A stretch of 64,000 bases of DNA. It comes from an uncultured Fretibacterium sp. GTDB lineage: Bacteria; Synergistota; Synergistia; Synergistales; Aminobacteriaceae. A model generated the notes under the pieces. That model ran no database searches. It was not told where the DNA came from and saw only the letters and a program-made list of their open reading frames with translations. The DNA is taken from assembly GCA_946186205.1 (NCBI GenBank), contig CAMHMH010000010.1, forward strand, positions 2,777 to 66,776, in the 5' to 3' direction. Position numbers and translations under genes: made by a program. Each line of letters begins with the position of its first letter. The first letter of the stretch is position 1. Positions 27,321 through 44,100 of the stretch are shown here, in pieces.

Positions 27321-27429
27321 TGATGAGGCAATCGGAAAAGTTGCGGTGATCGGCGCGCTTGCGTTGTACTTGGACTTCATCAACCTGTTCTTGTACCTGA
27401 TAAAACTTTTCGGGAAGAGAAGAGACTAG
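26713..27429 (+). CDS. BAX inhibitor-1/YccA family membrane protein (intact copy)
   Basis: 238 aa and 7-TM-like. N-terminus MAQYDSYTPYAAG preceded by AAAAAGGGAG. The C-terminal GALALYLDFINLFLYLIKLFG is typical of the family. Confidence 0.85.
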   Translation: MAQYDSYTPYAAGVGSIESVNTLFRKVYQYMALGLILTSLTAWITVASPAMIRFFYGSRAPLIIAAIAELGLVFYLSATIAKHDASTSLLLFGLYSVLNGITISCVLLVYTQESVYTAFLSTAGMFSAMSLYAMYTKRDITAWGSFLHMGLWGLIIAMVINIFLGSSTAETVISVMGIIIFMGLTAYDTAKIKSIAESSGMNDDEAIGKVAVIGALALYLDFINLFLYLIKLFGKRRD

Positions 27430-27773: not shown

Positions 27774-29039
27774 ATGGCCAACTTCAGACTCACACGCCAG
27801 CAAATGAACAGGCTGAAATTTCGTTTTGAGCAGTTCCGTAATGCAAGGCTTCAAGTTCACAGGCTCATGAAGGAATACATTGACGACTACAAAAACTTTC
27901 AGGGAGACTCCTCAGACCGCCAGGAATATTTAGAGGGAAAATACATCATGCTTGCTCCGTCTCACAGCCACATAAAATTTGACGGTGAAGAGATTGTCCT
28001 ATGGTCGCCGGATGATATAGCACTCTTGACCGGGCGGAGGCAGTCAACAATATCGCGAGTGCTTCAACGAATGCAACGGAGTCCGGGATGGCGTTCAAGG
28101 CTCGCGGCTCTCAGCGTCGACTCAATGTCCGGGAACAACAACAAGGTTTACATTTATCGGAGCGGAATATTTGATCTCATATTCGACAAGTACGAGGAAG
28201 AATATTTAGCACGTTACACACGGCCGCGCAGGGGAAATTCTGTCGACTCAAAAGAGGTCTTGCGCTTCTGGAATTATCTCAAGGACTCAAATTGTCATGA
28301 TGAGTATGACTCTTACAGCCTGAGAGTCTCAGAGGCTGAACAAAATGATGCTGATGATTTTCCGCCAATGTCATTGAAAGATATTGCCATGTTAATTTTC
28401 AGGAAGATACTAACGCCAAAGACAGGAATAATTTTCCCGGTGATATTCGCCGTAACTCTCGCGGTTGTCAGAAGATGGCCGGCAATGATTCCGATCCTCG
28501 CAATAATTTCTGTGATTGTGATTCCCGTTTGCGCTGTGATGATTCGGACTCATCGGTTCAGAATCGGAGTCGCGTCAGACATCGGGGCGGTCGCGTTACT
28601 GTGCGGCGTATTCTTGGGCGTTGCTTCATTCTCGGACGGAGTAATCTACACTCCCGGCGGAAATGCTGTAGAGCTTTACGAACACGAACGGAGCATTGAG
28701 CTTTACGCTGACATGTGGAGGAATGGCCGCGTGTTTTTCCGTGTGATCTCTGACAAGTATGAAGGCATCAAGGAAGTATTCTTCAGAGTGAATGAGGGCG
28801 AATACAAATCGACGGGCTTCAATGAGTATCATTATCCTGTATTGATGATTGAGCCTGAGACACAGCACGGTGATATTAGCATTGAGGTGAAGTATATTGA
28901 CGCTCGCAACAAAGAGTACGGGCCGTATAAATTTGTGTTTGATGTTGACGGTGAGAGGGAGAAACTAAAACGCAAAGCGGAAAATGACAGGCAGGAGTTC
29001 AAGCGCGAAAAGAAAGAAAAGAGCAAAAACAAAAAGTAA
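27774..29039 (+). CDS. Hypothetical membrane protein with an N-terminal HTH-like segment and a K/E-rich tail
   Basis: 421 aa. DIALLTGRRQSTISRVLQRM looks like an HTH. About three TM helices in the middle (residues ~215-300). C-terminal domain and KEKKEKSKNKK tail. Confidence 0.5.
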   Translation: MANFRLTRQQMNRLKFRFEQFRNARLQVHRLMKEYIDDYKNFQGDSSDRQEYLEGKYIMLAPSHSHIKFDGEEIVLWSPDDIALLTGRRQSTISRVLQRMQRSPGWRSRLAALSVDSMSGNNNKVYIYRSGIFDLIFDKYEEEYLARYTRPRRGNSVDSKEVLRFWNYLKDSNCHDEYDSYSLRVSEAEQNDADDFPPMSLKDIAMLIFRKILTPKTGIIFPVIFAVTLAVVRRWPAMIPILAIISVIVIPVCAVMIRTHRFRIGVASDIGAVALLCGVFLGVASFSDGVIYTPGGNAVELYEHERSIELYADMWRNGRVFFRVISDKYEGIKEVFFRVNEGEYKSTGFNEYHYPVLMIEPETQHGDISIEVKYIDARNKEYGPYKFVFDVDGEREKLKRKAENDRQEFKREKKEKSKNKK

Positions 29040-29128
29040 ACCGTGAAGGGAAAATTTTCTGTGATAAAATAGGGGCGGCGGTGAGGGAGCTAGCATGACC
29101 CCTAACGCCATGAAACAAACACCCACGA

Positions 29129-29263
29129 TTAACGGGTGAACCAGTCAATTAACAACAAGACTGTTTTCACGATCCAGAATACGGCAGCGGCGATTTTGTC
29201 AATCCGGTCAAGGAAAGTCCGCCGCTGTTTTTTTCCGGCTTTGCGCGTAACCTTTTTAGGCAT
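29129..29263 (-). CDS. Small basic/hydrophobic protein (44 aa)
   Basis: MPKKVTRKAGKKQRRTFLDRIDKIAAAVFWIVKTVLLLIDWFTR. GAGGTG lies 6 nt before the ATG. A second degenerate copy 220 bp away differs mostly at synonymous third positions in this frame. TGgTATAAT extended -10 upstream, on the minus strand near 29343-29351. Confidence 0.55.
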   Translation of the reverse strand: MPKKVTRKAGKKQRRTFLDRIDKIAAAVFWIVKTVLLLIDWFTR

Positions 29264-29388
29264 CGCGTTCACCTCAATTCTACAGGGCGGCTCCCCGTCG
29301 ACCGATGAGCCCTGTACCTCATCCGGGACTCCCTCGTGAAAATCATTATACCAGATAAAATTAGCACCTTATGTGATATGATACGTGC

Positions 29389-29462
29389 CATCCAGAAGAT
29401 AGCAGTGGCGATTTTATCTATCCTGTCAGAGAGATTGCGCCGCTGTTTTTATTGCCCTTCAT
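29389..29462 (-). pseudogene. Frameshifted paralog of the 44-aa small ORF
   Basis: The ATG (29460-29462, minus strand) gives MKGNKNSGAISLTG and then a stop. Adding one A to the A5 run would restore KKQRRNLSDRIDKIATAIFWMA, which is homologous to copy 1. Confidence 0.4.
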
Positions 29463-29509
29463 TATCTGCTACAATCCCACTAATCAATCACACACAGGAG
29501 GGATTTATT

Positions 29510-31510
29510 ATGCGAAGGAATTTATCACTCGCACTAATTCTTGTTCTCTTTTTTTCTTTCACACCTTCTCACGCACTCTCTATACGCGACAACTACGACA
29601 TAATCATAGCCGGAGCAGGCACAGGAGGAATCAGCGCGGCAATTCAGGCGGCCTCAATGGGCTCTGAAGTCCTCGTTGTAGAGTCGTCATCAATGCTCGG
29701 AGGCCAGGCAATCGCAGCAGGAGTCGCGAACATGGACGACCTTTCAGCGCAGAGGAGCGGAATATACGCCGACTTCATTTCGCGTGTCGAGGAGTATTAC
29801 TCAGCGCGGGGAAAATCCATCGGAACAAGCTACTGGGATCCGAGAAATTTAGCCTTTGAGCCTCACATAGGACTGCGAATCCTTCAGGAAATGGCACGAG
29901 GCGAGGAAGCACCCGACATTCTTTACGGGTCAGAAATTATTGCCGTCGGAAAAGAAGAAGTTATTTCCGTCAATGGCGAGAACGTCAGCGAGGCTCCACG
30001 AATCAACAGCGTAATCATTAAGACTCCTGAAGGAATGAAGAATATCACCTGCAAGATTCTCATTGACGCTACAGAATACGGCGACATTCTCCCGCTGGCA
30101 GGCGCGGACTACAGAGCAGGAAACTCAATCACGCCCAACATTAACCCAAACGCTATGATTCAGGACATAACATGGACAGCCGTTATCAGGAAATACCCCG
30201 GCGGAGTCCCTGAGCACCTCAAGCCTAAATCACCCCTTCCCGGCTACGACATGGCCCGCATAAATTACGCGAATTATGTCGCTAAGGACGGCTTCACCTT
30301 CAAGGGACAATACCCCGTAAAGCTCCCGGTAGATTTCATCACTCACAACGTTTACAGAGGACTCCCCGACTCTTTCACGCCCGGAAATTTTGACGCAACA
30401 CCAGAGAATTGGCCGTCAATCTCTAAATGCTCGGTCAACTGGGCTAATGATTTCCCCGGACAAAACAAGCTCGGAGACAAATACGGACTCCCAGTCTCAT
30501 ACTTGGAGGACAAAAACTTGCGCGCAAGGCTCGAACGCGACGCATTAATCAAAACTCTTCACTTCATTTACTACATGCAGAATGAGTTAGGCGAGTCATG
30601 GTCAGTTGATGAGAATGAATACGGCGAGCTTCAAGAGGCTGCAAAAGATCTCCCGGACGAATGGAAGATCATCGCACGTCATTTGCCCCCTGTCCCTTAC
30701 GTCAGAGAATCACGAAGGGGAGTCAGTAATCACACGCTAATCTCTCAGGAACTCTTCAGCAACTCATTAAGCTACAAAGACGGGCGCGGAAATAATGAGT
30801 TTCAGGACGCAATCGCAATCGGCTGCTATCATCTCGACTTGCATCACACGGACATCGAGTCGGATATGGAGTCAGACTTAGGCGAGAAGCAAGCGTACAT
30901 TGAGCAGCACAGGCCGCACGGAAATTTTCAGGTGCCAATGAACATTTTGATTCCCAGAAATGTTGACGGGCTAATACTCGCTGAGAAAAATTTATCGATG
31001 TCGAGACTCGTTGCAGGAGCTTTGAGACTTCAGCCAATCACAATGATGACAGGTCAAGCCGCCGGGGCTCTCGCTGCAATCTCTGTATCACGCAACATTC
31101 AGCCGAGATTCGTCAAGGCCGTTCACGTTCAGGAAGCACTGATTGATTCGGGGGCTAATCTCTCACTCTGCACTTACTCAGATGTTCCCGCTAATCACAA
31201 ATACTACAAGGCCGTACAGATCGCTAACCTCTATAAACTTCTTGAGCCGGAAAAATATCCCGATACAGTGTCTTATGATGTCGGCTACGATATAACATTC
31301 GCGCTCGACAATCCCGAACTCGTGAAGGAAATAGCAGAAGGCAAAGACAAAGGACTCTTCAAGCCCGATGACATTCTCAGCAACAAGGACAGGGAGAGTC
31401 TCATTGCCCGCGTGAAAGAATTAACAGGCCGTGAGATTTCACTGAAGGAAGGAAATATTACGAGGGGTGAAGCTGTGAGTCTCGCTGTTGAAGAATTGAA
31501 GAAAAATTAG
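29510..31510 (+). CDS. Secreted FAD-dependent oxidoreductase (FAD_oxidored-like)
   Basis: ATG at 29510 follows CAGGAGGG. Signal peptide MRRNLSLALILVLFFSF. DIIIAGAGTGGISAAIQAA dinucleotide-binding motif. The ORF portion upstream of 29510 is antisense to the small-ORF repeat. Confidence 0.75.
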   Translation: MRRNLSLALILVLFFSFTPSHALSIRDNYDIIIAGAGTGGISAAIQAASMGSEVLVVESSSMLGGQAIAAGVANMDDLSAQRSGIYADFISRVEEYYSARGKSIGTSYWDPRNLAFEPHIGLRILQEMARGEEAPDILYGSEIIAVGKEEVISVNGENVSEAPRINSVIIKTPEGMKNITCKILIDATEYGDILPLAGADYRAGNSITPNINPNAMIQDITWTAVIRKYPGGVPEHLKPKSPLPGYDMARINYANYVAKDGFTFKGQYPVKLPVDFITHNVYRGLPDSFTPGNFDATPENWPSISKCSVNWANDFPGQNKLGDKYGLPVSYLEDKNLRARLERDALIKTLHFIYYMQNELGESWSVDENEYGELQEAAKDLPDEWKIIARHLPPVPYVRESRRGVSNHTLISQELFSNSLSYKDGRGNNEFQDAIAIGCYHLDLHHTDIESDMESDLGEKQAYIEQHRPHGNFQVPMNILIPRNVDGLILAEKNLSMSRLVAGALRLQPITMMTGQAAGALAAISVSRNIQPRFVKAVHVQEALIDSGANLSLCTYSDVPANHKYYKAVQIANLYKLLEPEKYPDTVSYDVGYDITFALDNPELVKEIAEGKDKGLFKPDDILSNKDRESLIARVKELTGREISLKEGNITRGEAVSLAVEELKKN

Positions 31511-31655
31511 TGAGTCGATTCTGTTCCGTGAGTCTAAGAAGCGAATCGGCAATAAGTTCTTGATGACTATGAAACCGAATCAATCTCAAAATTTCAGAGA
31601 GTCGATTCTGTTCCGTGAGTCATAGAAGCGAATCGGAAATAAGTTTTTGATGAGT
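31511..31655 (+). repeat. Two direct copies (~88-nt period) of a short intergenic repeat
   Basis: GAGTCGATTCTGTTCCGTGAGTC(T/A)(A/T)AGAAGCGAATCGG(C/A)AATAAGTT(C/T)TTGATGA occurs at about 31512 and about 31600. The core AAGAAGCGAATCGGCAAT recurs inverted at 52638-52745. Confidence 0.8.
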
Positions 31656-31718
31656 GCAAAATGAAAAATGTAAACTGATTCAGATGCATTCGATTTTTTG
31701 AAGCCGTTATGCAACACT

Positions 31719-31757
31719 AAGGGAGGCCAAACGCACAAAGGGGAAGCCTCCTTTTTG
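31719..31757 (+). terminator. Probable Rho-independent terminator
   Basis: GGGAGGC...GCCTCC stem followed by TTTTT. Confidence 0.45.
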
Positions 31758-31855
31758 TTTGCAGAAATTACGCAATGAAAAATCGGTAAGCATTTTTTTT
31801 TTTCTAAGTATAATGTGCAATTATCCCTATACTTTTAAGAAAGGACTCATTCTGA

Positions 31856-33505
31856 ATGAACAGCGAATATTCACGAGAAGTCGAAAAATTATCAGCGGCG
31901 TTTGATGATGCTGTCTCAAACTCAGAGGCATTCACTCAGCAGGAAAAATCATCGTTCAACAATGAAATCTCAAACCGTGTGCTTCCTCTTCTCAATTCAC
32001 CCAAGCCGAAAATTTTGGTCTACGGAATCTACAACGGCGGCAAGTCTACCCTCGTAAACTCTATATGCGGGCGTGAAGTTGCATCAGTTGCTGACCGTCC
32101 CGAAACTCACAGGATTACAGCATATGACGCGGGAAAATATGTTCTTGTCGATTCTCCCGGCATTGACGCGCCTGAAGAAGACGAGAGAGTCGCGGACGAA
32201 CAAATTAAAGCGTGCCACATCATTTTGTTTGTTGTCAGCTCAAAGGGAGGATTTGAGAGCGAAACGAATTACCGCAAAATGCTCGACCTTATGAACAAGG
32301 GCATACCGTTTATCATCGTCCTTAATGACAGAGGCGTGCCAACAAATGAGGAAGCACAGCACCGCCGCGAGCTTCAGGATATACGCAGCAAAATCATCAA
32401 GAACCTCACGAAGTACAGCGGGCGTAATGACATCGAAAGAAAGTATGAAGTGATTGTAGTAAATGCTCTCAGGGCATGGCGCGGAGTCTCGGAAAACAAA
32501 GCGGGCTTCATATCGAACAGCCGAATCACAGACTTAACATCAAGGATTGATCAGCTACTCGAAAGCAAAGAAGTCCTGAAAATGTATCTCGCTCCCCTCT
32601 CAGCACTTGAGGAAGAAATCAACAGGGCAGAAGAATTACTCACAGCACGTAAGGTAACGGAAGATTTTGCGCGCAGAAGGTCAGCACTTCAGCAGAGAGT
32701 CACGGAGCTTCATTCGAGCATGGAGAACGCAATACGATACACGGCCTCAAAGTATACGGAAGAAATTTATCACAGCTTTCTCGGCGAGGGCGGGCGGAAT
32801 ATTGCGGACATTAACGCAGAAATAGCGAGCGAGGTTGATGGCAAGTATAAAGTTTCTGTTTCACCTGTTCTGACGTACATACGTAAATCATTTGCTGACA
32901 TAAACGTTACGGCGGACGAATCCGGGAATGTCGTTCTTGCGACTCCTGAAGTCAGCATGAAGCCTCGTGCGGTTTCTGGTGATGACAGCGGGAACTTGCC
33001 GGCATATTCGGACAAGAGCAGCCCGGCGGATTATGACACAGGGAGCATCACAAAAGCAGCGGCAGCAGGAGCGGCAACAGGGGCGGCAATCGGAAGCATT
33101 GTACCCGTAATAGGAACAGCAATAGGCACGGCAGGAGGAGCATTAATCGCGGGAGTCGGTGAATTTCTCCGTCAGATGTTCTCACGTGATGACAGTGAAA
33201 AGGAATTTGAGAGAAGATTGCGTGAAGTTGAAGCCTACAACAGACAGATAGAACAGAAATTCGAGGAGGACAAGCGCAGGAGGCAGGACGCACGAACGGC
33301 AGCAAACGCGCAAGTCAACAGCGCAGTTAAACAGCTCAGGTCAGCATATTCAGATCTCATAGACAAGACATTCAGCAAGGTTATACAGCTCATCGACTCA
33401 GCCGCCGCTAAAAATTCCGCAAGCAACGCCGCTATAGACGGGACAATGAATATACTTCTCGCGCTTAACGCAAATATTCACAATCTCCGTCAGAAAATCG
33501 CATAA
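31856..33505 (+). CDS. Dynamin-like P-loop GTPase 1 with a C-terminal glycine-zipper membrane segment and coiled coil
   Basis: G1 GIYNGGKST and G3 DSPG. Long helical C-terminus. AAAAGAATGAAIGSIVPVIGTAIGTAGGALIAGVG hydrophobic Gly-zipper. R/E/Q-rich coiled-coil tail. Confidence 0.6.
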   Translation: MNSEYSREVEKLSAAFDDAVSNSEAFTQQEKSSFNNEISNRVLPLLNSPKPKILVYGIYNGGKSTLVNSICGREVASVADRPETHRITAYDAGKYVLVDSPGIDAPEEDERVADEQIKACHIILFVVSSKGGFESETNYRKMLDLMNKGIPFIIVLNDRGVPTNEEAQHRRELQDIRSKIIKNLTKYSGRNDIERKYEVIVVNALRAWRGVSENKAGFISNSRITDLTSRIDQLLESKEVLKMYLAPLSALEEEINRAEELLTARKVTEDFARRRSALQQRVTELHSSMENAIRYTASKYTEEIYHSFLGEGGRNIADINAEIASEVDGKYKVSVSPVLTYIRKSFADINVTADESGNVVLATPEVSMKPRAVSGDDSGNLPAYSDKSSPADYDTGSITKAAAAGAATGAAIGSIVPVIGTAIGTAGGALIAGVGEFLRQMFSRDDSEKEFERRLREVEAYNRQIEQKFEEDKRRRQDARTAANAQVNSAVKQLRSAYSDLIDKTFSKVIQLIDSAAAKNSASNAAIDGTMNILLALNANIHNLRQKIA

Positions 33506-33519
33506 AGTGAGGTCATAAC

Positions 33520-34470
33520 ATGCTGTCAAAAAAAGATGCAGAAACTTTAGAGAGGCTCGCAGGTTCAGGCTTCCTTCAGAAATGGGAGGGACTCCGCAGA
33601 AAGTTTGACTCCGGCGAAAAAATCACAGTCGCTAATACAGGTCAGTACAGTTCCGGCAAAAGCACGCTCTTTAATGCTCTCTTGGGACGGGTTGACAATG
33701 AACGCTTCCAGACCGGCGCAATTCCCACGACGAAATCAGGAGACCGCGAGAGATTCTCGGACAATATTGATCTCATGGACACGCCCGGAATTGACGCGAA
33801 TCTTGCTGACGATGCAGAGGCCTTCAGGATGTTAATGGAGTCGGACATCATCATAATGACTCACAACGTCAAAACAGGAATGCTTAACCGTGCCGAATAT
33901 GACTGGCTGAAAAAAATTGCTGACGGGATCGGCTCTGAAAGCATTTCCGACAGGCTGATATTTGTCTCAACGTGGATTGACGAAATACAAGAGGAGTCAG
34001 ACCAGCAGAAATTGAGAGACGAAATACAGCGTCAAATCTCGGAGATAGTATCAGGAAAACAAATAGCATATTACGAGGTGTCAGCAAAAAGATATTACAC
34101 GGCCGTGAAGAAAGGCAATGCGAATCTCGAACGTGCCAGCAGAATCCCGGAATTAAGAGAAGGCCTCACAGGACGCGCGAAACTTTACGGGGCATCGCTT
34201 CAGGCTTTGAGGAAAAAAGAATTGTCCATGCTGTGCAGTGAGTCATGGGACGCTCTCCGATCTCTGAGAAATGAAAAGGACGGCGAGATTTCACGACGAA
34301 AGAAACGAATCCGTGAAAGGCATGACTCAGAGTTTGAGACTTGGCGGGGAATCAAGAACAGGTTCGAGTCAATGAGGCAGAATGTATTCAGCAAGCTGCA
34401 CACTATACGGCAGCATTTCGACAGCTCATCAGATTACCAGTCTTACGAGCGAAGAGTCTATGACATTTAG
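33520..34470 (+). CDS. Dynamin-like P-loop GTPase 2 (short form)
   Basis: G1 GQYSSGKST, G3 DTPG and a G4-like STWID. Paralog of residues 1 to ~290 of the 34892 ORF. Confidence 0.6.
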   Translation: MLSKKDAETLERLAGSGFLQKWEGLRRKFDSGEKITVANTGQYSSGKSTLFNALLGRVDNERFQTGAIPTTKSGDRERFSDNIDLMDTPGIDANLADDAEAFRMLMESDIIIMTHNVKTGMLNRAEYDWLKKIADGIGSESISDRLIFVSTWIDEIQEESDQQKLRDEIQRQISEIVSGKQIAYYEVSAKRYYTAVKKGNANLERASRIPELREGLTGRAKLYGASLQALRKKELSMLCSESWDALRSLRNEKDGEISRRKKRIRERHDSEFETWRGIKNRFESMRQNVFSKLHTIRQHFDSSSDYQSYERRVYDI

Positions 34471-34481
34471 GAGGGGTGAAC

Positions 34482-34892
34482 ATGGCGGTAATATTCTGGG
34501 CAGCAGCAGGAGCCGTAGTAGCGGCGGCCACGCACGGAGATCACAGCGCGCACAGCGATTACGACAATTACGGGAATTACGGGGACTACAGCGACGCAGC
34601 CGAAAGAAGGCGCAAGAGACGTGAGGGAATGAAGCCGGAAATAGAGTCCTCAGCAAATGAATTGTCAACCTACAAGAGAAGTATTGTAAACCCGCAGTTA
34701 AGCAGCCAGTCATTAAAGGCGGAAAAAGCAATGACTGTTGATGTTGATGCGATGGATTTAGACGCGAGGTCGAAGATCAACAGCAAGATAAATATTGAGG
34801 AGTTATCGCAGACGGGGGACTTGAGAAAAGAGCTTGATGAGATTGACGGGCTTCTTGCGAAAATTGCACACATAGGGAGCGAGAACAAGTAA
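34482..34892 (+). CDS. Small membrane protein with seven tandem [H/Y]-x-x triplets; C-terminal domain homologous to the tail of GTPase 3
   Basis: AGGAGG lies 7 nt before the ATG. N-terminal TM MAVIFWAAAGAVVAAAT, then HGD-HSA-HSD-YDN-YGN-YGD-YSD, then RRRKRRE. The C-terminus (YKRSIVNPQL...AMDLDARSK...LRKELDEIDGLLAKIAHIGSENK) aligns with the GTPase 3 tail. Confidence 0.7.
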   Translation: MAVIFWAAAGAVVAAATHGDHSAHSDYDNYGNYGDYSDAAERRRKRREGMKPEIESSANELSTYKRSIVNPQLSSQSLKAEKAMTVDVDAMDLDARSKINSKINIEELSQTGDLRKELDEIDGLLAKIAHIGSENK

Positions 34893-36076
34893 TGAACTTC
34901 TCAGCGGATGAGCTTTCACTTCTGGGAAAATATGCCGGATCTGAAACCGCAAGACGATGGGAGACTCTGCAAAAGAAGCTGGCTTCCGACGACAAAATCA
35001 CGATCGCTAACACCGGGCTTTACAATTCGGGAAAAAGTATGCTGTTCAATGCGATTCTTGACTGTACAGAAAATGAGCGTTTCAGCGTCGGGGACATGCC
35101 CACAACGAGAGAAGCAGACCGCGCAAGATTCACGGACAACATTGACCTAATGGACATGCCCGGAATTGGTACAGATCCTGCCGATAATGCAGAAGTCCCA
35201 AGTATGTTAATGGAGTCTGACATCATAATAATGACTCACAGGATCAACGCAGGAATGCTTAACCAAGCCGAATGTGAATGGCTGAAGAAGATTGCTGAAA
35301 ATATCGGTGCAGAAGCGATAAATGACAGGCTCATATTTGTATGCACAGCTATTGACCGAATAAGCAGCGAGGGTGAAAGGAACAAACTGCGGAATGAATT
35401 AATGCGTCAGGTTTCGGGTGCGTCATTCGGAAGGATGATTCAATTCTGGGAAGTCTCCTCAACTCGTTATTACAAGTCAAAGGCTGAGGGCAATTCCGAG
35501 CTTGAAGCAATGAGCGGTATACCTGCGCTCCGTGAATATCTTGTGTCTGAAGCTGAAAGACTTTCTCACATGGCCGGGGCAATAAGGAAAGCGGAAATTC
35601 TGAGGCTGTGCGCTGAAATATTATCTGCGCTGAGTGCAGCAAGAGAGTCTGTGATACGTGACTTTTCTGAACTCTCAGGGAAAATCCGCGAAAAATACAG
35701 AATGAAGCTAGAAGAATGGCAGGGAGTCCTGAAAACTTTCAGCAGAAAAAAGAGAGGAGATACTACAGGACTGAATCCTACAGGACTGTGGGGGAACATC
35801 GGCTCATTTTTCGGAAAAGAATACAGTACAAAGAAAGACACACTTTCAGACTATAAAGCAAAAATCGTAAACCCGTTCTTAGCCTCTGAGACTCTCATCA
35901 ATGCCAGCGCAATGGATGTTTCAGAGCAGGAAATGGACTCTGACGCACGTGGAAAACTCCGCTATGAGGAAGGCTACGAGGAAGCATCATCGACTCTTGA
36001 GCTTAGGCGCGAGCTTGAAATCATAGACGGACTGACAGCAAAATTTTCATACATAGAAAGCGAGAACAAACAATGA
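34892..36076 (+). CDS. Dynamin-like P-loop GTPase 3 (equivalent to a fusion of GTPase 2 and the small-protein C-domain)
   Basis: G1 GLYNSGKSM, G3 DMPG and a G4-like CTAID. Carries PTGLWGNIGSFFGKEY. The tail is YKAKIVNPFL...EMDSDARGK...LRRELEIIDGLTAKFSYIESENK. TAATG overlap with the preceding gene. Confidence 0.6.
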   Translation: MNFSADELSLLGKYAGSETARRWETLQKKLASDDKITIANTGLYNSGKSMLFNAILDCTENERFSVGDMPTTREADRARFTDNIDLMDMPGIGTDPADNAEVPSMLMESDIIIMTHRINAGMLNQAECEWLKKIAENIGAEAINDRLIFVCTAIDRISSEGERNKLRNELMRQVSGASFGRMIQFWEVSSTRYYKSKAEGNSELEAMSGIPALREYLVSEAERLSHMAGAIRKAEILRLCAEILSALSAARESVIRDFSELSGKIREKYRMKLEEWQGVLKTFSRKKRGDTTGLNPTGLWGNIGSFFGKEYSTKKDTLSDYKAKIVNPFLASETLINASAMDVSEQEMDSDARGKLRYEEGYEEASSTLELRRELEIIDGLTAKFSYIESENKQ

Positions 36077-37833
36077 CAGCAGTTGAAGCAATAAATGAAT
36101 TTGTAGAAACAATGTTAGACTGCCGCGAAACGTTAGACAAAATAGAAGGCTCTGACGAAAAATTATCGCAGTGCATAAAGACATTCGCCGAAAGAATTTC
36201 AGACATCACGAAACCGAACGCGCAATCAGATAATCCCGCAGTCAAAGACATTCAGGAGAGCCAGACAGAAACATTGCGCGAAATGCTCAAGGACGTAGGC
36301 GCGAAAATGGACGCAACCCGCGAAAATATGAAGTTCATAGTCAGCAACAAAGAGTCATTCAACATCGCAGTGTTCGGAAAAGTGAAGGCCGGAAAAAGTT
36401 ACACGGGCAATTTCATCATGGGCAACGTGATTCGCGGCATGGGTATCAAGACTTCTTACGACAATATTACGCCCCCGAAAGTTACGGTGTATGACAGAGG
36501 CAAAATCACTTCAGCCGAAAAGCTCGCGGAGATTGAGAGCAACGATGACGGATTCATTGTTGACCCTAACGAGGCCACAAGCACAATACAGCTTTTCACT
36601 CTCGGCGGCATGAAATGGATCGACACTCCCGGAATAGGAAGCGTGACTCAGGCGAATGAGCTTCTCGCAAAAGATTTTGTTGACAGCGCAGACCTTGTTG
36701 TCTACATGAGCAACTCTGACGCGGCAGGAACTCATCAGGACTTCAAAGAGCTTGAGACTCTTCACAAGAAAGGAAGAAGATTTCTGCTCCTCCTCACTCA
36801 GTCAGATACGCTTGAGGAAGACTGCGATGACGACGGAAATATTATCGCGACTCTCGTCCCTAAGTCCGACAAAGACCGCAAAAGCATGGAAGATTACATC
36901 TGCGAAACTCTGAAGGAATACGGAATCAATGAGAAGAAGCTTCAGCGAGGCCGGGAGATACTCACAATTTCAACAAAGCTCGCACTTGAAGCACTAAAGA
37001 ATAATGATGAGGCCATGTTCGACGCAAGCAACCTCAAAAAATTTCTCGCAATACTCATCGACATTACACGGAACGAAAGCGCAGACTTGAAACTTGCAAC
37101 CCCCGCGAAAAGAATCAACTCCGCGATTGACGCTATCATGGAAATTTTGACAGGAGCAGAGCATACACTCAGCAAACATTCTCAGAGCCTCAGAGAAACA
37201 GAAGAGAGACTCACCGACAACAACGAAACACTTTTAGCGCAGATGAAAAATGACTCGTACATGAAGATTGAGTCATTCATAACGAGGAAGGCTGAAGAGG
37301 TTGAAAAGGGCGGCGCGTCAGTGAGTGCTTCAGACATTGAGCGCGAAATAAATTCTGTGGTTTACAATTCCGTAATGAATGCTTGCGCCAAAGAATTTTC
37401 CGGGAGCGAGAGAATTTTGTCGTCATACTCTGAGAGCCTCAAGATTCAGGCGGGCGGCGACTTGTCCATGAGAACAGATACGATCACTCACACTCAAAGG
37501 AAAGTCGAGCGTGAAAGAAGAGATCCTACAGGACTGTGGGAGAATATCGGCTCATTCTTCGGAAAAGAATATTACAGCACAAAAACAAGGAACGTAACAA
37601 TCACAACAAAAATAGATCTCGGAGTGAATACAGCTCAGGTAATGGCCTCGATAAGAAGCGGGCTTGATGAAGTATTCATGACTCAGATTCCCGAAATGAT
37701 GAAGAAACTTGCGGATGAGATTATTTCTCCCGTCCGTGATGTTCAGGAAAAAGCAAAGGCTCAAATTTCCGCGACGATAAAAGAGCTTGAAGGCGTGAGA
37801 ATAAAAATTGCTGACACTCATACTGAAGGCTAA
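36073..37833 (+). CDS. Dynamin-like P-loop GTPase 4 (long form)
   Basis: G1 GKVKAGKS, G3 DTPG and a G4-like LTQSD. Long helical stalk-like C-terminus. Carries PTGLWENIGSFFGKEY. ATGA overlap with the preceding gene. Confidence 0.65.
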   Translation: MTAVEAINEFVETMLDCRETLDKIEGSDEKLSQCIKTFAERISDITKPNAQSDNPAVKDIQESQTETLREMLKDVGAKMDATRENMKFIVSNKESFNIAVFGKVKAGKSYTGNFIMGNVIRGMGIKTSYDNITPPKVTVYDRGKITSAEKLAEIESNDDGFIVDPNEATSTIQLFTLGGMKWIDTPGIGSVTQANELLAKDFVDSADLVVYMSNSDAAGTHQDFKELETLHKKGRRFLLLLTQSDTLEEDCDDDGNIIATLVPKSDKDRKSMEDYICETLKEYGINEKKLQRGREILTISTKLALEALKNNDEAMFDASNLKKFLAILIDITRNESADLKLATPAKRINSAIDAIMEILTGAEHTLSKHSQSLRETEERLTDNNETLLAQMKNDSYMKIESFITRKAEEVEKGGASVSASDIEREINSVVYNSVMNACAKEFSGSERILSSYSESLKIQAGGDLSMRTDTITHTQRKVERERRDPTGLWENIGSFFGKEYYSTKTRNVTITTKIDLGVNTAQVMASIRSGLDEVFMTQIPEMMKKLADEIISPVRDVQEKAKAQISATIKELEGVRIKIADTHTEG

Positions 37834-38905
37834 TAACTCGTGCAACCTTCGCTGCTCATATTGCTGTGTCGGCGACAAGTCATCATCATCAATGCTCAAC
37901 GCTGAGGAAATGTCCCGCACTTTGTCGTGGTTTGCGTCAGAAGCGAGAATGCGCGGTGAACATTCACCCTCAATAATCTTTCACGGAGGAGAACCGCTTC
38001 TGATTCCCGTCTCACAGTACCGTGAATGCCTCGACACTTTGCTGAAAGATAACGCAGATTTAGACTTCACGTTTCAGATTCAGACGAACGGGACAATCAT
38101 TAATGATGAGATTATCGCGTTCCTAAAAGATTATGACGTTCAGCCGGGGATTTCTGTTGACGGTCCGCAGGGTGTTCACGATTCGCAGAGGATTAAAGCT
38201 GACGGGAGTCCCTCGTATTCACTTGTCATGAAAAACATTCGGCGGCTCAAGTCTGAGGGGCTTAACGCATGCGGTCTTATGGTTCTGACTCGGAGATCAC
38301 TAAATGCCGGGCTTGAATGGCTCAATGACTTTGCGGAAATGAGAGTCCCAATGAAAATCAATCCGCTTTATTCTGCCGGTGAAGCACTGAAACATGACGA
38401 GCTTTCTTTGAGGCCGGGCGATTATGCTGACTATTTGATTCGAGTCTACGAATATATTTTTGACAATGAGATAAACATCTCGCTGACTCCGATTGAGTAC
38501 ATACTTCAGGGAATAATCAACGACATTACGCCGAGGGGCTGCGTTTTCTCCGGGACGTGTCATGACTCTTTCTTGTGCATTGATTACGAGGGAAATATTT
38601 ACCCCTGCGGAAGATTTGCGGACAGCAAGTCGAACATCGTCGGCAACATTCACACGGGCATAACAAGAGGAGGCCGTCAGATTCTCGCGGGTCTCAAAGC
38701 GTCGAGGACATCAAATATTCGCAGCGAGTGCAAAAATTGCAGGCACGTCAGATTCTGTAACGGCGGCTGCTCTGTCATGAACGGCGCAATGTGCAAAGAC
38801 TTCATGAGATTCACGGACTATCTTTTCAGCAATGGCATCACGAAATACAAGGACTATTTGCTTCACAGGCGGGCGGAAATATGCAGTATGATTTGCTCCT
38901 CCTGA
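37808..38905 (+). CDS. Radical SAM enzyme with a C-terminal SPASM domain (peptide/protein-modifying maturase type)
   Basis: CNLRCSYC (CX3CX2C) near the N-terminus. C-terminal YPCG...CKNCRHVRFCNGGC (CX2CX5CX3C) SPASM signature. No ATG is available; the likely start is TTG at 37808, overlapping the previous gene by 26 nt. Confidence 0.8.
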   Translation: MLTLILKANNSCNLRCSYCCVGDKSSSSMLNAEEMSRTLSWFASEARMRGEHSPSIIFHGGEPLLIPVSQYRECLDTLLKDNADLDFTFQIQTNGTIINDEIIAFLKDYDVQPGISVDGPQGVHDSQRIKADGSPSYSLVMKNIRRLKSEGLNACGLMVLTRRSLNAGLEWLNDFAEMRVPMKINPLYSAGEALKHDELSLRPGDYADYLIRVYEYIFDNEINISLTPIEYILQGIINDITPRGCVFSGTCHDSFLCIDYEGNIYPCGRFADSKSNIVGNIHTGITRGGRQILAGLKASRTSNIRSECKNCRHVRFCNGGCSVMNGAMCKDFMRFTDYLFSNGITKYKDYLLHRRAEICSMICSS

Positions 38906-40560
38906 ACGTTACGAGATACAGCGCAAACGGAGGATGGTTTCATGAATATTTAGGCGGACACATAATCGCGTCATATATATCACAGTTTCAGTTCTCCGCA
39001 AAAGTTTTCTCATGCCACGTTTCAGAATGCACAAAGATAATCACGAACGAAATCACGAAAAGGGGAGTCGAAATTCTCGGCTTCTATGTCGCGGCTGACA
39101 ATGTGATTCTTTCCGGCCATGTCATGAAGTGGGTGAAGGAAAATTTTCCGTGCGTTAAGATTCTCGCGGGAGGCCCTGAATGTTACGCGCTTGGTGAAAA
39201 GTTCATTGCTGAAAGTTTATGTGATTATGTTGTTTACGGCGAGGGGGAAAAGTCCGTGCTTGATATTCTTCGTTATGAGCTTGACGGAATCGGAAGCCGT
39301 GAAAACATCAGAGGCATAAAATACATATCGCCTTCAGGAATTTTCACCGTAAATCCTCCGTCTGAACTGATACATGACCTCGACTCGATTCCATTTCCCG
39401 ACAGAAGTAACAGCTTGAGTCTTGATTTCAGGACAGGTGAATCGATCGGCATTCTTACGGGGAGGGGCTGCCCATTTCACTGCGGGTTCTGCTTTGAGGG
39501 TTCAGCGTCAAAAACTGTGAGGCTTCGTAGCATTGGGAATGTCATCGCGGAGATTGAGTCAGTCAGAAGATACAATCCCTCCTTGAAGTGCGTCAACATT
39601 TACGATGATACTTTCACGCTTAGTCCTGAGAGAGTCAGAAAGTTCTGCGACTACATGAGAACCGCCGGGCTTTTGTGGACGTGTGAAGCTCATGTATCAG
39701 TCCTCTATCACAACCCCGAAATGATTCACATCATGGCCGGGTCCGGGTTAATCGCCGTGCAGATAGGAATCGAGAGCGGGAACAGAAGAGTCCTTGAAGC
39801 CTACAAGAAGAACATCACGCCGGAAATGATTATTGATGTCGTGAGAATGTGCAAGTCAGCAGGAGTTTACCGCGTTGAAGGCAATTACATTTTGGGCGGA
39901 GCTTTCGAGTCAGAAGAGACATTACGGGACAGCATCAGTCACGCAAAATCACTCATCACTAACGGGCGGGGCATAACGGAAATCAACACTGTATTTTTTG
40001 CGCCTTACTTCGGAACGCCTGTAACAAAAAATCCTCAAGCATACGGAATGAGAGTCGACTCTTTCAGGAACGATCACACAGCCGTAACGATGAGGGAAGC
40101 TGTTACTGAGTCAGAAAGTTTTACGGTGAATGAAATCGTGAGGGCCAAAGAAATTTTTGAGCGCGAAATCACAGATCACTATATCGCCGAGGCACTGAAC
40201 ACTGCGAGGGACGAACTAATTCACGGGACATGCAGGAATATTCCCGTTCATGTGAGCAATACGCACTGGATTCGGGCGTGGAGAAATTATCCGCACATCT
40301 CCGACTTCATGGAACACCTTTCGCATGACGAGCAGGAATTTTCGCCGATGAAATTTCCCGTGAGGACTCTCAGCGCGTATACTGTTGAGGGAGATAATGT
40401 TTCAGGTTACGGCGTGAGTCTTTCGGGAGAAGAGTCGAGAGCGATTCTTTTTGCTGACGGAAGGAGGACAGTAAAAAAAATTGCTGAGGAAAACGGAATC
40501 TCCCCAGCAGTTTTTGAGTCTCTGAATAATAAGTGCCTCGTATATTTCTCGGATTTCTAG
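38881..40560 (+). CDS. B12-binding-domain (class B) radical SAM enzyme
   Basis: N-terminal Rossmann-like B12-binding-type region followed by GRGCPFHCGFC (CX3CX2C). ATG at 38881 overlaps the SPASM gene by 25 nt. Confidence 0.75.
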   Translation: MQYDLLLLNVTRYSANGGWFHEYLGGHIIASYISQFQFSAKVFSCHVSECTKIITNEITKRGVEILGFYVAADNVILSGHVMKWVKENFPCVKILAGGPECYALGEKFIAESLCDYVVYGEGEKSVLDILRYELDGIGSRENIRGIKYISPSGIFTVNPPSELIHDLDSIPFPDRSNSLSLDFRTGESIGILTGRGCPFHCGFCFEGSASKTVRLRSIGNVIAEIESVRRYNPSLKCVNIYDDTFTLSPERVRKFCDYMRTAGLLWTCEAHVSVLYHNPEMIHIMAGSGLIAVQIGIESGNRRVLEAYKKNITPEMIIDVVRMCKSAGVYRVEGNYILGGAFESEETLRDSISHAKSLITNGRGITEINTVFFAPYFGTPVTKNPQAYGMRVDSFRNDHTAVTMREAVTESESFTVNEIVRAKEIFEREITDHYIAEALNTARDELIHGTCRNIPVHVSNTHWIRAWRNYPHISDFMEHLSHDEQEFSPMKFPVRTLSAYTVEGDNVSGYGVSLSGEESRAILFADGRRTVKKIAEENGISPAVFESLNNKCLVYFSDF

Positions 40561-41120
40561 TTCATGCAGCGGTCTCGGATAATATCCTTCACTCTTTCGA
40601 CGACGTAATCAAGCCCGCCCGATGTATCAAGAGTTACAGTTCTTGCCATGAGTCCAAGCTCGTAAAGACAATCGTCAATCTTTTCTCCCACACGTGAATG
40701 AAAATCTACTGCCCATTCTTTATTGTCGCTGAAAGTTTTTGTGCGTTCGTGCATTTGTTCGGGAGTTGTGAGCAGCTTTATTCCCCATGCCCTGTCGATT
40801 AGCGGAGACGTGCGCATTAAAGCCGAGAGCCTGCGAAAACTTTTCGGGTTGCGTACTGCGACATACGCGAGATTGCCGGGGTGCCAAGTCTCAGACACAG
40901 AGACTCCCGGGAGATTCGCGAAATTCATATCACGTTCAAGCTCCATTCTCGTAAGCTCAACTTCAAACGACTCGTCCCTTTTGTCGGGGATCCCTTTGTC
41001 CCGGTAAAATATTTCCTTGCCTATCTCGTAGCCGCAGCCCGTTATGATATTGTCCCTCTCAAGCGCACGGAGTATACTCGTCTTCCCGCTCGCATGAGGC
41101 CCGCAAATGAACATGAACAT
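40557..41120 (-). CDS. P-loop NTPase/kinase-like protein (AAA-type small ATPase)
   Basis: Walker A CGPHASGKTS at the N-terminus. 187 aa. Lies 3 nt downstream of mfd on the same strand. Confidence 0.5.
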   Translation of the reverse strand: MFMFICGPHASGKTSILRALERDNIITGCGYEIGKEIFYRDKGIPDKRDESFEVELTRMELERDMNFANLPGVSVSETWHPGNLAYVAVRNPKSFRRLSALMRTSPLIDRAWGIKLLTTPEQMHERTKTFSDNKEWAVDFHSRVGEKIDDCLYELGLMARTVTLDTSGGLDYVVERVKDIIRDRCMN

Positions 41121-41123
41121 GAA

Positions 41124-44100
41124 TTAACCCTCCTGTGTGATTTTGATGTTACGGCCTAATGACTTGAGATATTTTCTCATACGCGCGTCCATTTCACCGC
41201 CGGAAGATTTTACTGTTACAGTTCCTTTCTTGACGGTTACCTGACGAACTCCGAAACGACCGCCGAAATTTTTCGCCGCCGTGAGTCCCGCAAGATATTT
41301 CACCTCTGAAGGTATTGCCCCGAATCTGTCGGACATCTCATCACATAATGCGTCAATCTCATCAAGTCCGACCGCGTTAATCAGCCTGCGGTAAATCGTA
41401 ACTCTCACGTCATCCTGTGGGATATAATGTTCAGGAATGAATCCGCCGCCCCTGTCTGAAATTATTTCGGGCTTCTCTGGTTCTTTCCTGCCTCTGAGTC
41501 TGTCGAGCTCCTCTTCAAGAAGTTTGTAGAAAAGATTGTATGAGCTGTTTCGAGTCGTACCGTGCTGAAGTGTTCCGCCTGCCTCGCCTCCTCCGCGTAT
41601 GTCAAGATCCCTTCTCGCAATCTCGTAGCCTGATCCCAACTCCGTCATTGTTGATATTGCTTCAAGGCGGTCAAGTGTGTCCTGATTGAGCGTTGATTTC
41701 TCCGGGTAAAAGAAGTAAGCGAATGCCTTCTCTCCTCTTCTGCCGACTCTCCCTCGAAGCTGATACATTTGCGCGAGTCCTAACTCTTCTGCGTTGTCGA
41801 TTATTATCGTGTTTGCGCGACCGACATCAAGCCCGCTTTCGATTATCGTTGTCGCTATGAGGATGTCTATTTTTCCATCGTAGAAGTCTAGCATTGTTGA
41901 CTCTAGTTCTTTCTCGTTCATTTGTCCGTGAGCCGTCCTGATTCTTGCGTCAGGGAAAAACGCTTCAAGCATTCTCAGATATTCGGGCATACGTGAAATT
42001 TTTGCTGACAGAAAATATACCTGCCCGCCCCTGTTAAGCTCATACGTGATAGCCCGGCGAATCACTCCCGCGCTGAACTGGCCTGTGTATGTCGTGATGG
42101 GCAGCCTGTCTTCAGGAGGAGTCGACAATACAGAAATGCTCCGTAATCCTCGTAACGCCATCTCAAGAGTACGGGGAATCGGAGTCGCTGAGAGGCTTAG
42201 CACATCCGTTTTGCCGTAAGTCAGCTTCAGGCTCTCTTTGTGCATTACGCCGAACCGGTGTTCCTCGTCAATGATGAGTAATCCCAAGTCCCGGAACTTC
42301 ACCCCCTTCTGCAATAATTTGTGAGTCCCAATGAGAATATCAATCTTTCCTTCTTCTGTTGACTTGAGGACTTCACGCGCCTGCTTTGCTGTGATGAACC
42401 GCGACAAGAGTCCGACGTTCACGGGGAAGCCCGACAACCTCGACTGAAACGCCGCGTAATGCTGCTGAGCCAATATCGTTGTGGGAACGAGCACGCACAC
42501 TTGAAACCCTGACATTACGACACGAAAAGCCGCCCTCAATGCAACCTCCGTTTTTCCGAACCCAACATCACCGACTAACAATCGATCCATAGGGAAATTT
42601 GATGACAAGTCCTTCATGATTTCGTCAACCGCTTTAAGCTGGTCTGCTGTCTCGTTGAAGGTGAAAGCGTTCACAAAGTCATCATATGCGCTGTCGTTCG
42701 GTGCGTAAGGGGGACGGCGTTCAAGCTCACGTTTCGCAAAAATTTCCATGAGCATTAGGGCTTCTTTCTGCGCGCGCTCCTGAGTCTTCTCAAGATTTTT
42801 CTTCCACGATTTGCCTTTGAGGCTGTCAAGTTTTGCTGACTCTGACTCGTGCTCATTGAGTCCCGTCAGTTTTGCCGACTGAATCACGGGTATCAAGAGT
42901 CTTTGGTCATCCGCAAACTCAATCACAAGCACATCAAGAGGCATGCCAGAGTCATTTATCGTTTCGATCCCCCGGAATATTCCCGTGCCGTAATCCTCAT
43001 GAATGACGAGCTGCCCCGGTGATAATTTCCCGCCCTCGTTCCAGTCGTTTGGCGTGTGTCTCTGAGTGAGTGAGACTCCCGCGTTGATGCCGGACAATTC
43101 GCGCTCCGAGATAAAAGCCTTCTTTGCTTCCCTGTTGACAAAACCCGCTGAGAGATTCCCGCCGTGAATCGTGTAGGGCAGTTTCTGATACACCGGGTTG
43201 TTCGTGAAGACTTCAACGCCGAATCCATTCCGTGAAAGCTCCTCGCATGTGTTAAGTATCGTGTATGAATTTCCCCTGAAGGCCGGAAGTGATTCGGTCG
43301 GAAATTCAGCCTCAGATTTAGCGGGGTCATTCGTGATTCGAATCACAGGGAACTTTGCGAGCCTCACAAAAATTTTGTCCCATTCGTCAACAAGATACCC
43401 GGCTTTCTTTTCGTCAAAAACTTCACGCCACAGCCACATGAATGACTCGGCCTGCTGCTCTGTCTTCGATGGCTCATAAAGCGTTATCATCGTGTCGGGC
43501 GGCATGAGTGAGTCAGTCTTTGACCGTTCAGCCTCGGTTATGGCGTGCAAGATTACTTCCTCAAGCTGCATTAATTGAGAGTTAGTTTTCTGAGTGTCAG
43601 GCGAGAACCCTCCGATTCGTTCGATCTGCTCATCAAGAAATTCAAACCTTAACGGCAAAGCGTAAGCAGGATCATAGACATCAAGAATGAATCCTCTTTG
43701 CGCGAACTGGCCGGGAAGCCACACGAGACTCGACGGAGTATAGCCGGAATAAATCAGCCATTCTTTTATCGTGTCGGGACTGATGTTTTCATTGAGCGAA
43801 ATTTTGAGAGCCTTGACACCTACGAGGCATGAAGACATTAACGCACCGGGTGAAGCCGCAAGTACTCCTGACGAATTAGCCCATCGCCGCAATATCTCTC
43901 CGCGTTCTAGAAGCAGCGCATGTATGCTCGCGGCCTGCTGTGATAATGGCATCTCAGGAAGAAGGAATACATTTGCGTCCGGGTGCAGCGTCTTGAAGTC
44001 CTGCGTGAATGCTGAGACCTGAGTCGAGTCCGGGAAAATTGCGAGCGTGTGTCCTCTTGCGGGAGTCAGGTAGGCTCTTGCGGAAATTCCTGCGCGTTCA

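Follow-up and report, generated by a model that had tools for sequence, protein, structure and literature searches.

A seven-gene operon was analyzed in a 64,000-nucleotide (nt) stretch of DNA from an uncultured Fretibacterium sp. (GCA_946186205.1, contig CAMHMH010000010.1, positions 2,777 to 66,776 of the forward strand); this stretch is termed the window, and its coordinates are used throughout. The open reading frame (ORF) listing places seven tightly coupled ORFs, designated g1 to g7, on the plus strand at 31856-40560. They encode four dynamin-like GTPases (g1, g2, g4 and g5), a membrane protein (g3), a radical S-adenosylmethionine (SAM)/SPASM enzyme (g6) and a B12-binding radical SAM enzyme (g7). 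The operon is best explained as an Eleos-derived, dynamin-like membrane machine that carries its own radical SAM maturation module and likely serves in phage defense, a reading given a somewhat better than even chance.

Conservation of the gene set and relationship of the GTPases

Relatives were gathered using a homolog search with g6, contig look-ups, and a g6 family alignment run against 185,579 species genomes. The preliminary description of the operon, which was made from the letters alone, had staked its reading on synteny of the radical SAM genes with the GTPases in other genomes. All relatives examined showed such synteny (upward of 15 distinct loci in at least three phyla, one order being permuted). 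All loci with a SPASM gene at least 32% identical to g6 have the order g1-g2-g3-g5-g6-g7, and in the same scan none of the 68 loci with a SPASM gene at most 31% identical to g6 carries any of these GTPases. Chance juxtaposition was ruled out by synteny in the relatives as against absence from the 68 loci.

The conserved unit consists of six genes (g1, g2, g3, g5, g6 and g7) and, lineage-specific variants aside, is kept at radical SAM identities of 25 to 93%. A distant subfamily recovered in a metagenome scan (L100 and L103), with a g6 ortholog that is 25% identical, has all six genes in the permuted order g2-g3-g5-g6-g7-g1. Because the gene set survives rearrangement, the case for functional linkage is strong, and the content and co-inheritance of the six genes are held to be close to certain. 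The carriers include metagenome-assembled genomes (MAGs) of Synergistaceae, Candidatus Blautia excrementipullorum, Lachnospiraceae, Butyricicoccus, Ruminococcus (R. flavefaciens included), Clostridium sp. HCP1S3_C6, a Riflebacteria MAG and Clostridium novyi A str. 4570. The system is rare, being present in about 10 of the 185,579 species genomes at the scanned level, and is distributed patchily over phyla. Its closest six-gene relative, the Synergistaceae locus L008, has the operon in a different genomic context, and locus L093 shares with the window all seven genes and their chromosomal site. The remaining gene, g4, is confined to the clade of the window (3 database clusters); it is present in L093 and absent from L008 and all other loci.

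Each of the four GTPases matched the LeoA or LeoBC models of PADLOC and has intact P-loop and DxxG motifs, in agreement with their earlier designation as dynamin-like. The number four is correct for the window, but the conserved six-gene system has three dynamin-like units, g4 being a clade-specific extra. Gene g1 (31856-33505, 549 amino acids [aa]) encodes a LeoA-like GTPase that matched the LeoA model at E=1e-29 over positions 14-535 of 559 (93%) and has the P-loop GIYNGGKS and the motif DSPG. Its residues 402-444 form a Gly-zipper hydrophobic tip (Gly-zipper_Omp, 22.6 bits, under the cut-off of 25), which is clade-limited and not conserved among orthologs, and its C-terminal region gave a weak match to PDC-M09A. 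The short GTPase g2 (33520-34470, 316 aa) matched LeoA at E=6e-23 over model positions 42-339, and both g2 and g4 cover the GTPase and first-helix part of LeoA. The LeoBC-like GTPase g5 (36073-37833, 586 aa) matched LeoBC at E=6e-21 over positions 23-384 of 601, the N-terminal ~60% of the model; it has the P-loop GKVKAGKS and the motif DTPG, and is 32% identical to an annotated 'dynamin family protein' of Klebsiella plasmids. With Pfam, Dynamin_N and MMR_HSR1 were above cut-off for g1 and g2, as was MMR_HSR1 for g4; Dynamin_N in g5 scored 26.0, slightly under the cut-off of 27.

The extra GTPase g4 (34892-36076, 394 aa) resembles its two upstream neighbors placed end to end. Residues 4-288 of g4 are 48% identical to g2, and residues 310-393 are 48% identical to residues 53-136 of g3; because g2 and g3 each align with g4 at this identity, g4 is regarded as a fused version of the two, which adjoin each other in all loci. 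BLAST of g4 against g2, g3 and g5 showed its GTPase to be g2-like, its tip motif g5-like and its C-terminal helices g3-like; anchor and triplets are both lacking. Between the tip copy (g4 residues 295-315) and the tip motif in g5 (residues 484-504, 37522-37584, plus strand, DPTGLWENIGSFFGKEYYSTK) the identity is 76%. In an AlphaFold2 model of g4 (predicted template modeling score 0.70) the GTPase domain leads into a helix of 80 residues, beyond which there are a disordered tip and a helix that returns. The best Foldseek matches of the model in the PDB were IniA (7e-9), Campylobacter DLP1/2 and LeoA; IRG proteins and mitofusins came next. When the g1 sequence was compared with PDB sequences only generic Era/Der GTPase domains were matched, and g5 gave no match; since these searches were uninformative, the dynamin assignment rests on the PADLOC models together with the g4 fold.

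Descent of the system from Leo/Eleos is regarded as highly probable. It is also probable that g2 and g3 together make up a minimal dynamin-like protein which is split at the stalk tip and has its anchor at the N-terminus of g3. The operon had been put forward as an undescribed system, and this holds to the extent that no paper describing it was found in the searchable full-text literature linking dynamin-like proteins, Eleos or LeoA with radical SAM, SPASM or peptides that are ribosomally synthesized and then post-translationally modified (RiPPs); all that came up was an Eleos preprint that is unrelated. The GTPases are, however, specifically relatives of LeoA and LeoBC, and the system therefore derives from a known defense system and is not unrelated to it.

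The small subunit g3 and the radical SAM enzymes

Gene g3 (34482-34892) encodes a small membrane-anchored subunit of 136 aa for which no Pfam, NCBIfam or PADLOC family was matched. It consists of an N-terminal hydrophobic anchor, an array of seven triplets (residues 18-38, 34533-34595, plus strand; HGD HSA HSD YDN YGN YGD YSD), the basic patch AERRRKRR and a two-helix hairpin. In the AlphaFold2 model residues 35-72 and 88-134 are helical, and residues 1-35 are disordered at low confidence. The DNA of the array holds a 9-nt tandem repeat. The orthologs share this plan, having a hydrophobic Gly/Ala-rich N-terminus from residue 2, then triplets, a near-invariant YSD-AAERRxRR, within which the terminal YSD-AAE of the array is invariant, and a helical hairpin. 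In 41 of the 42 unique g3 orthologs (the 42nd was not scored) there are 4 to 8 in-phase triplets, with a mean of 6.5. The first triplet position is occupied by Y (68%), H (31%) or W (1%), the second mainly by S (64%), D (17%) or G (11%), and the third by D (58%), N (30%) or A (9%). Of 1.84 billion cluster representatives (50% identity), 224 were matched by a g3 profile at E<=1e-3, which makes the family larger than the genome scan would indicate. No record was an exact match to the g3 sequence of the window (P0121). At least three triplets were present in 130 of 143 further listed representatives; the others comprised fragments of the C-terminus, one fragment resembling g4, a single case out of phase and a repeat-less paralog type. 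Comparison of g3 with the C-terminal stalk of g1 using hhalign gave no homology (probability 0.4%).

Repeat-less relatives of g3 were considered as a natural control and set aside, the readable case (P0258, in locus L095) sitting beside a canonical g3 and being uninformative. That locus has, at 4239-4688, an extra 149-aa paralog of g3 (MGWFTD..., highly charged) between g2 and the canonical g3; it is devoid of anchor and triplets, and parallels the triplet-less g4 of the window. For two distant g3 subfamilies (P0266 and P0254) the contigs were of insufficient length for reading the gene context.

Systems lacking the radical SAM genes were located using tblastn of g5 and g2 against plasmids. 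A sister four-gene cluster was found on many plasmids of Klebsiella, Raoultella and Citrobacter and on a plasmid of Photobacterium toruni. It encodes a GTPase of ~280 aa (best match g2), a small protein of ~162 aa, a 'dynamin family protein' of ~600 aa (g5) and a GTPase of ~540 aa (g1; E=3e-40 with LeoA), in the order of L100 minus both radical SAM genes, and no radical SAM gene was present within 6 kb of the clusters. On an Acetobacter plasmid the g5-like and g1-like pair stands alone, in the classical two-gene form, so that two-gene (Acetobacter), four-gene (Klebsiella, Photobacterium) and six-gene forms make a graded series. A dynamin pair on plasmids of Burkholderia, Acinetobacter and Diaphorobacter was rejected as a different pair lying within catechol/benzoate operons. 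These genes (L107, 3598-6446; L108, 4911-7657; L109, 4923-7792) encode GTPases of ~415 and ~510-535 aa, and a setting of catechol/benzoate degradation is unexpected for dynamins.

The small proteins of the sister clusters are built like g3: a hydrophobic N-terminus leads to a low-complexity linker, and what remains is helical. Their linker is poly-Ser (S8, S14) without any aromatic residue. Alignment of the g3 profile with the Klebsiella small protein was weak (hhalign probability 34%, E=4e-4) and placed the poly-Ser on the triplets, which is positional support only. Aromatic triplets thus occur where radical SAM genes occur, in a comparison that includes two independent sister lineages, and this is the main evidence for g3 as substrate. 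The earlier proposal that a membrane protein of the operon itself is the likely substrate gains from the near-universal array of g3 and from the poly-Ser in both radical SAM-less sister systems; that the array is the substrate of g6 is accordingly favored here, with moderate rather than high confidence, as a prediction from sequence. Because sister systems without radical SAM genes have a small protein of the same architecture, g3 is taken to be primarily a structural subunit. The preliminary description had also noted that genes typical of RiPP clusters were missing. Indeed, no protease, transporter or RiPP recognition element (RRE) protein is conserved in any locus, but g3 is itself effectively the RiPP-like precursor.

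A second feature varies in the same manner. The FFGKEYY core of the g5 tip is kept in 17 g5 orthologs, those of the distant L100 and L103 included. All g5 orthologs linked to radical SAM genes have a conserved ...SFFGKEYY at this place, and the g5-like proteins of the sister systems have a Gly-zipper hydrophobic segment. The FFGKEYY tip is possibly a second modification site, or possibly a different membrane-binding element.

For g6 (37808-38905, 365 aa) a TTG start was chosen because the CX3CX2C motif (C12/C16/C19) is otherwise excluded, and this start fits the ortholog consensus. The protein matched Radical_SAM at E=1e-14 and has CNLRCSYC at residues 12-19, a SPASM motif CX2CX5CX3C (C308-x2-C311-x5-C317-x3-C321) and further invariant cysteines (C245, C251, C267 and C329). 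Pfam SPASM was not reported for g6 at E<=0.01; SPASM maturase models align with the protein over its full length, and PF13186 is present in many of its orthologs. No N-terminal RRE domain is present. The best NCBIfam match was DynA, the dynobactin maturase (187 bits, cut-off 450), followed by the anaerobic sulfatase-maturating enzyme (anSME) at 161, TIGR04083 at 148.5, PapB at 147.6, DarW at 135 and YhhB at 131 bits; QhpD scored 107. Other cyclophane synthase families (DarE/DarW, XyeB, GrrM/OscB, FxsB, YhhB and AmcB) scored 75-135 bits against cut-offs of 310-650. Among PDB sequences the relatives were anSME (the best), CteB and the triceptide synthase ChlB. The preliminary description had named an anSME with a sulfatase partner as the outcome that would speak against it; g6 scored 161 bits against a TIGR03942 cut-off of 349, and no sulfatase was found in any locus. 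A further candidate, a prokaryotic viperin (pVip), was rejected, only the generic radical SAM core (residues 9-121) being matched (E=3e-12). To our knowledge, pVips have no SPASM domain. Judged by these comparisons, g6 is a new SPASM subfamily within the peptide- or protein-modifying group and not an anSME.

The call of g7 (38881-40560, 559 aa) as a B12 radical SAM enzyme was upheld by a Radical_SAM match (PF04055, residues 192-352, E=2e-19) and by a match to the B12-binding domain (PF02310, residues 24-126, E=2e-6) which, at 28 bits, lies under the cut-off of 32; orthologs carry PF02310. The protein has CPFHCGFC at residue 197 and the class B architecture of an N-terminal B12-binding domain followed by the radical SAM core. 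Its best NCBIfam match was HpnJ (128 bits, cut-off 578), and all 21 matches, with ApyD, PhpK, BchE and methyl-coenzyme M reductase (MCR) methylases among the families, were far under their cut-offs, so that g7 belongs to no curated functional class B subfamily. Relatives among PDB sequences include CysS, TokK and OxsB. The conserved C-terminal domain of ~85 aa (YPVRT...LNxRCLVYFSxF) was considered as an RRE/PqqD-like domain and this was rejected, a PDB profile search and per-member Pfam searches giving only sub-threshold winged-helix matches (E>=0.03). One lineage (L091/L092) is without g7 but keeps g6 and the triplet array, and for this reason the modification by g7 is treated as accessory.

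Proposed function and rival explanations

Sequence and comparison give the machine three dynamin-like units, of which g1 is LeoA-like, g5 is LeoBC-like and the third is a split dynamin in which g2 contributes the GTPase and outgoing helix and g3 the anchor, linker and returning helices; g4 is a fused extra copy of the g2-g3 unit. The enzyme g6 would act on the (Y/H)-x-(D/N) array between the anchor of g3 and its basic patch, most likely closing each triplet into a three-residue cyclophane by an aromatic-to-C-beta crosslink of the kind found in triceptides, xenorceptides and dynobactin. A flexible juxtamembrane linker would thereby become a rigid, strand-like and protease-resistant segment. A second, dispensable change, probably C-methylation, would be added by g7 on g3 or on the FFGKEYY tip of g5, and the matured complex would use GTP hydrolysis for remodeling, sealing or surveying the cytoplasmic membrane. 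Cyclophane formation is itself put at a little under an even chance as the chemistry predicted for g6. The fullest version, in which 4 to 8 back-to-back cyclophanes, with or without methylation, form a strut or sensor that Eleos-type GTPases need at the membrane during phage infection, is offered tentatively.

A role in phage defense is favored because of the analogy with Eleos and the variable effector-like genes found downstream in relatives. In five lineages (L088 at 9408-11671, L012, L013, L090 and L091) a pair resembling PDC-M09A and BnzB (Bunzi) lies directly downstream on the same strand; matches to PDC-M09A reached E=8e-90, and those to BnzB were E=7.5e-119 in L088 and reached 8e-137 among the scanned flank ORFs. 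A patatin phospholipase gene is directly downstream in three lineages (L001/L009, L016 and L094). The PDC-M09A/BnzB pair and the patatin may be integral effectors or mere neighbors. Past the patatin gene of L094 there are two more radical SAM genes (16939-19284), encoding a 456-aa B12-binding radical SAM protein and a 275-aa radical SAM protein. Two loci have nearby a giant Ser/Thr kinase resembling PD-T4-6, a WYL/WCX regulator is encoded upstream in C. novyi, and XRE regulators are found upstream at other loci. Conjugative plasmids carry the sister systems, whose neighbors are a toxin-antitoxin pair or a type III CRISPR locus.

Comparison with L093 showed that the window operon is a mosaic. 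Approximately 190 nt upstream of the g1 ATG are ~99% identical, while g1 itself has diverged to 64-66% aa identity. Over 31856-37833 and its surroundings, DNA identity is about 93-96% in the flanks, g3 and g6, and 58-78% in g1, in g5 over its N-terminal half, and in portions of g2 and g4. The flavin adenine dinucleotide (FAD) oxidoreductase flank, g3 and g6 have a synonymous divergence (dS) of ~0.2 and a ratio of nonsynonymous (dN) to synonymous divergence of 0.10-0.13. For g1 and g5 the dS is ~0.7 and the dN 0.22-0.25 (66-69% aa identity), a nonsynonymous divergence about 10-fold that of the flanks, g3 and g6; the dN/dS of g4 is 0.76. Such a pattern points to replacement of alleles or to diversifying selection acting on the GTPases.

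Several observations weigh against the reading given at the outset. Gene g6 is far under the cut-off of every curated maturase family, and its chemistry therefore cannot be read by homology. Its second-best family and best solved relative is anSME, and the middle position of the triplets is most often Ser. It is known that anSME oxidizes Ser or Cys. The g5 tip motif co-varies with the presence of radical SAM genes as well, and so could be the substrate or a second substrate. The putative enzyme-substrate link of g6 with g3 is a correlation, and just two independent sister lineages that lack the radical SAM genes bear on it. The operon lies among housekeeping genes in the window (flagellin, ALAD, GreA, Mfd and Ddl), and metabolic genes predominate in the flanks of 14 related loci, for which reasons the defense-island signal is moderate. 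No homolog was found in phage genomes using tblastn of g5.

The same machine, matured in the same way, might instead serve in housekeeping or stress-related membrane repair or remodeling. Membrane repair or remodeling has been proposed for DynA, IniA and the vesiculation of LeoABC. That LeoABC was first tied to vesicle release (PMC4159319) agrees with such a role, as do the core-gene neighbors in the window, where no mobile or defense genes are nearby, and the metabolic flanks of the related loci. It is nevertheless rather unlikely given the rarity and patchiness of the system, the different genomic position of the operon in L008, the patatin, Bunzi-like and WYL modules attached in relatives, the plasmid-borne sister systems, and the hypervariability of g1 and g5 between near-identical backgrounds. 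On this analysis phage defense is put at about an even chance or a shade above it, ahead of housekeeping membrane repair though not by a wide margin.

Two other explanations were considered. Were the operon a RiPP cluster, the modified N-terminal part of g3 would be freed as a bioactive peptide and the GTPases would act in export, immunity or vesicle delivery. An Omega-x-x repeat beside a SPASM enzyme is the signature of triceptide clusters (PMC11499958), and B12-binding radical SAM methylases are known in RiPP pathways, ApyD and TIGR03975 being among the matches. With no protease, transporter or RRE protein conserved in any locus, with homology to the stalk of the fused GTPase g4 over the C-terminal two-thirds of g3, and with the same small-protein architecture in sister systems devoid of radical SAM genes, this is considered very unlikely. 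It is also quite unlikely, if less so, that the radical SAM enzymes act on the tip of g5 or g4, on a lipid or on a small molecule, the array being a metal-binding or regulatory linker. Such a target would account for the correlation of the FFGKEYY tip with the radical SAM genes, the best matches of g7 include the lipid-related HpnJ and a ladderane lipid radical SAM enzyme, and residues such as His, Tyr and Asp typically serve as metal ligands. Against it, all family and structure matches of g6 are to peptide- or protein-modifying SPASM enzymes, the array fits the Omega-x-x motif in register and copy number, and the lineage that lacks g7 keeps g6 together with the array.

If the maturation of g3 by g6 is correct, the operon would provide a new SPASM subfamily that acts on a tandem Tyr/His array within a 136-aa subunit and has a B12-binding radical SAM partner. 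The novelty would lie in RiPP-type chemistry whose target is not a secreted peptide but a membrane machine's structural subunit. A maturation-bearing variant would mark the membrane-proximal linker of the small subunit as a critical part of Eleos-type dynamins. Genetic handles are offered by deletions of the radical SAM genes and by Tyr/His mutants, cultured carriers for experiments by C. novyi A str. 4570 and Clostridium sp. HCP1S3_C6, and a testable evolutionary series by the steps from the two-gene Eleos through the four-gene form and the six-gene form with radical SAM genes to the seven-gene form.

Operon layout and comparison with known systems

The junctions of the operon are as first reported, with gaps of 14 and 11 nt bearing Shine-Dalgarno-like sequences, a TAATG at 34892, an ATGA at 36073, and overlaps of 26 and 25 nt. 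The promoter and leader region (31660-31855, plus strand) lies behind the FAD-oxidoreductase gene. The terminator reported to precede the operon is present there as a hairpin followed by a T-run at 31737-31754 (about 31722-31760), which would close the FAD-oxidoreductase gene, but such sites are no commoner regionally than in shuffled sequence. An Rfam scan of 29000-42000 gave nothing relevant, and hence no recognizable riboswitch. Between the FAD-oxidoreductase stop and the leader there is a 65-nt direct repeat (31502-31566 and 31589-31653; 88% identical, 87 nt apart) that has no further copies in the window and is diverged in L093, with a 34-nt insertion; its predicted folding was no better than that of shuffled sequence and it matched no Rfam family.

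The convergent gene said to follow the operon was confirmed (40557-41120, minus strand, 187 aa) and overlaps the g7 stop by 4 nt. Its product has a weak P-loop (AAA_18-like), and the gene is not kept beside the operon in other loci. Upstream, at 27774-29039 (plus strand), a 421-aa protein with hydrophobic segments and no family match is encoded; it is conserved in L093 and is not operon-adjacent in other loci. Elsewhere in the window there are an 851-aa protein with many ankyrin repeats and a C-terminal zinc ribbon (18073-20628, minus strand), which is unusual for a bacterium, and two adjoining genes for Bax inhibitor-1/YccA-family membrane proteins (25958-26488 and 26674-27429, plus strand), of which the first (176 aa) is apparently N-terminally shortened.

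The Eleos and LeoA/LeoBC proteins were reportedly treated by Millman and coworkers in 2022 and by Michie and coworkers in 2014. Eleos is a two-gene LeoA/LeoBC system of Bacillus vietnamensis that protects against jumbo phages and requires both P-loops (bioRxiv 10.1101/2022.05.11.491447), and in the LeoC/LeoB of enterotoxigenic Escherichia coli the split is inside the GTPase domain (PMC4159319). The present system resembles Eleos in its adjoining LeoA and LeoBC homologs (g1 and g5, at the level of the PADLOC models), in the dynamin-like fold of GTPase, helical stalk and tip seen in the g4 model, and in having one dynamin split into two genes, membrane-binding tips, and intact P-loops in all four GTPases. 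It differs in having six conserved genes and three dynamin units (four in the window) in place of two genes and two units, and in being split at the stalk tip past a complete GTPase domain and not within that domain as in LeoC/LeoB. The two radical SAM enzymes and the aromatic triplet array have not been reported for Eleos, and the hosts here are anaerobic gut and rumen Synergistota and Bacillota. We know of no account of the means by which Eleos-type bacterial dynamins stop phages. In relation to Bunzi and PDC-M09, which are candidate defense systems of membrane surveillance, the pair is absent from the window and is a facultative add-on outside the conserved six genes.

Radical SAM enzymes that mature proteins have precedents in anSME (sulfatases), QhpD (the gamma subunit of amine dehydrogenase) and the Gln and Arg C-methyltransferases of MCR. 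The similarity is seen in the matches of g6 to anSME and QhpD at the scores given above and of g7 to the MCR Gln C-methyltransferase (68 bits); these scores are far under the cut-offs, and no sulfatase, amine dehydrogenase or MCR is present in any related locus.

The triceptide, xenorceptide and dynobactin-darobactin pathways have in common with the operon an RRE-less radical SAM/SPASM enzyme near a gene with tandem Omega1-X2-X3 motifs, which are the sites of the three-residue cyclophane-forming enzymes (PMC11499958); g3 has seven such motifs in phase. Rings of W-V-N, F-A-R and W-S-K are documented for xenorceptides (bioRxiv 10.1101/2024.12.16.628070), and the Y/H-x-D/N of g3 is within the known motif space. 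The CX3CX2C motif and the full set of SPASM auxiliary-cluster cysteines are present in g6. In contrast to those pathways, no protease or exporter accompanies the operon and g6 is under every curated family cut-off; its presumed substrate is not a leader-core peptide but a 136-aa membrane-anchored subunit of a GTPase complex, with 4 to 8 contiguous triplets placed beside the membrane anchor and a B12-binding radical SAM enzyme as the partner of g6.

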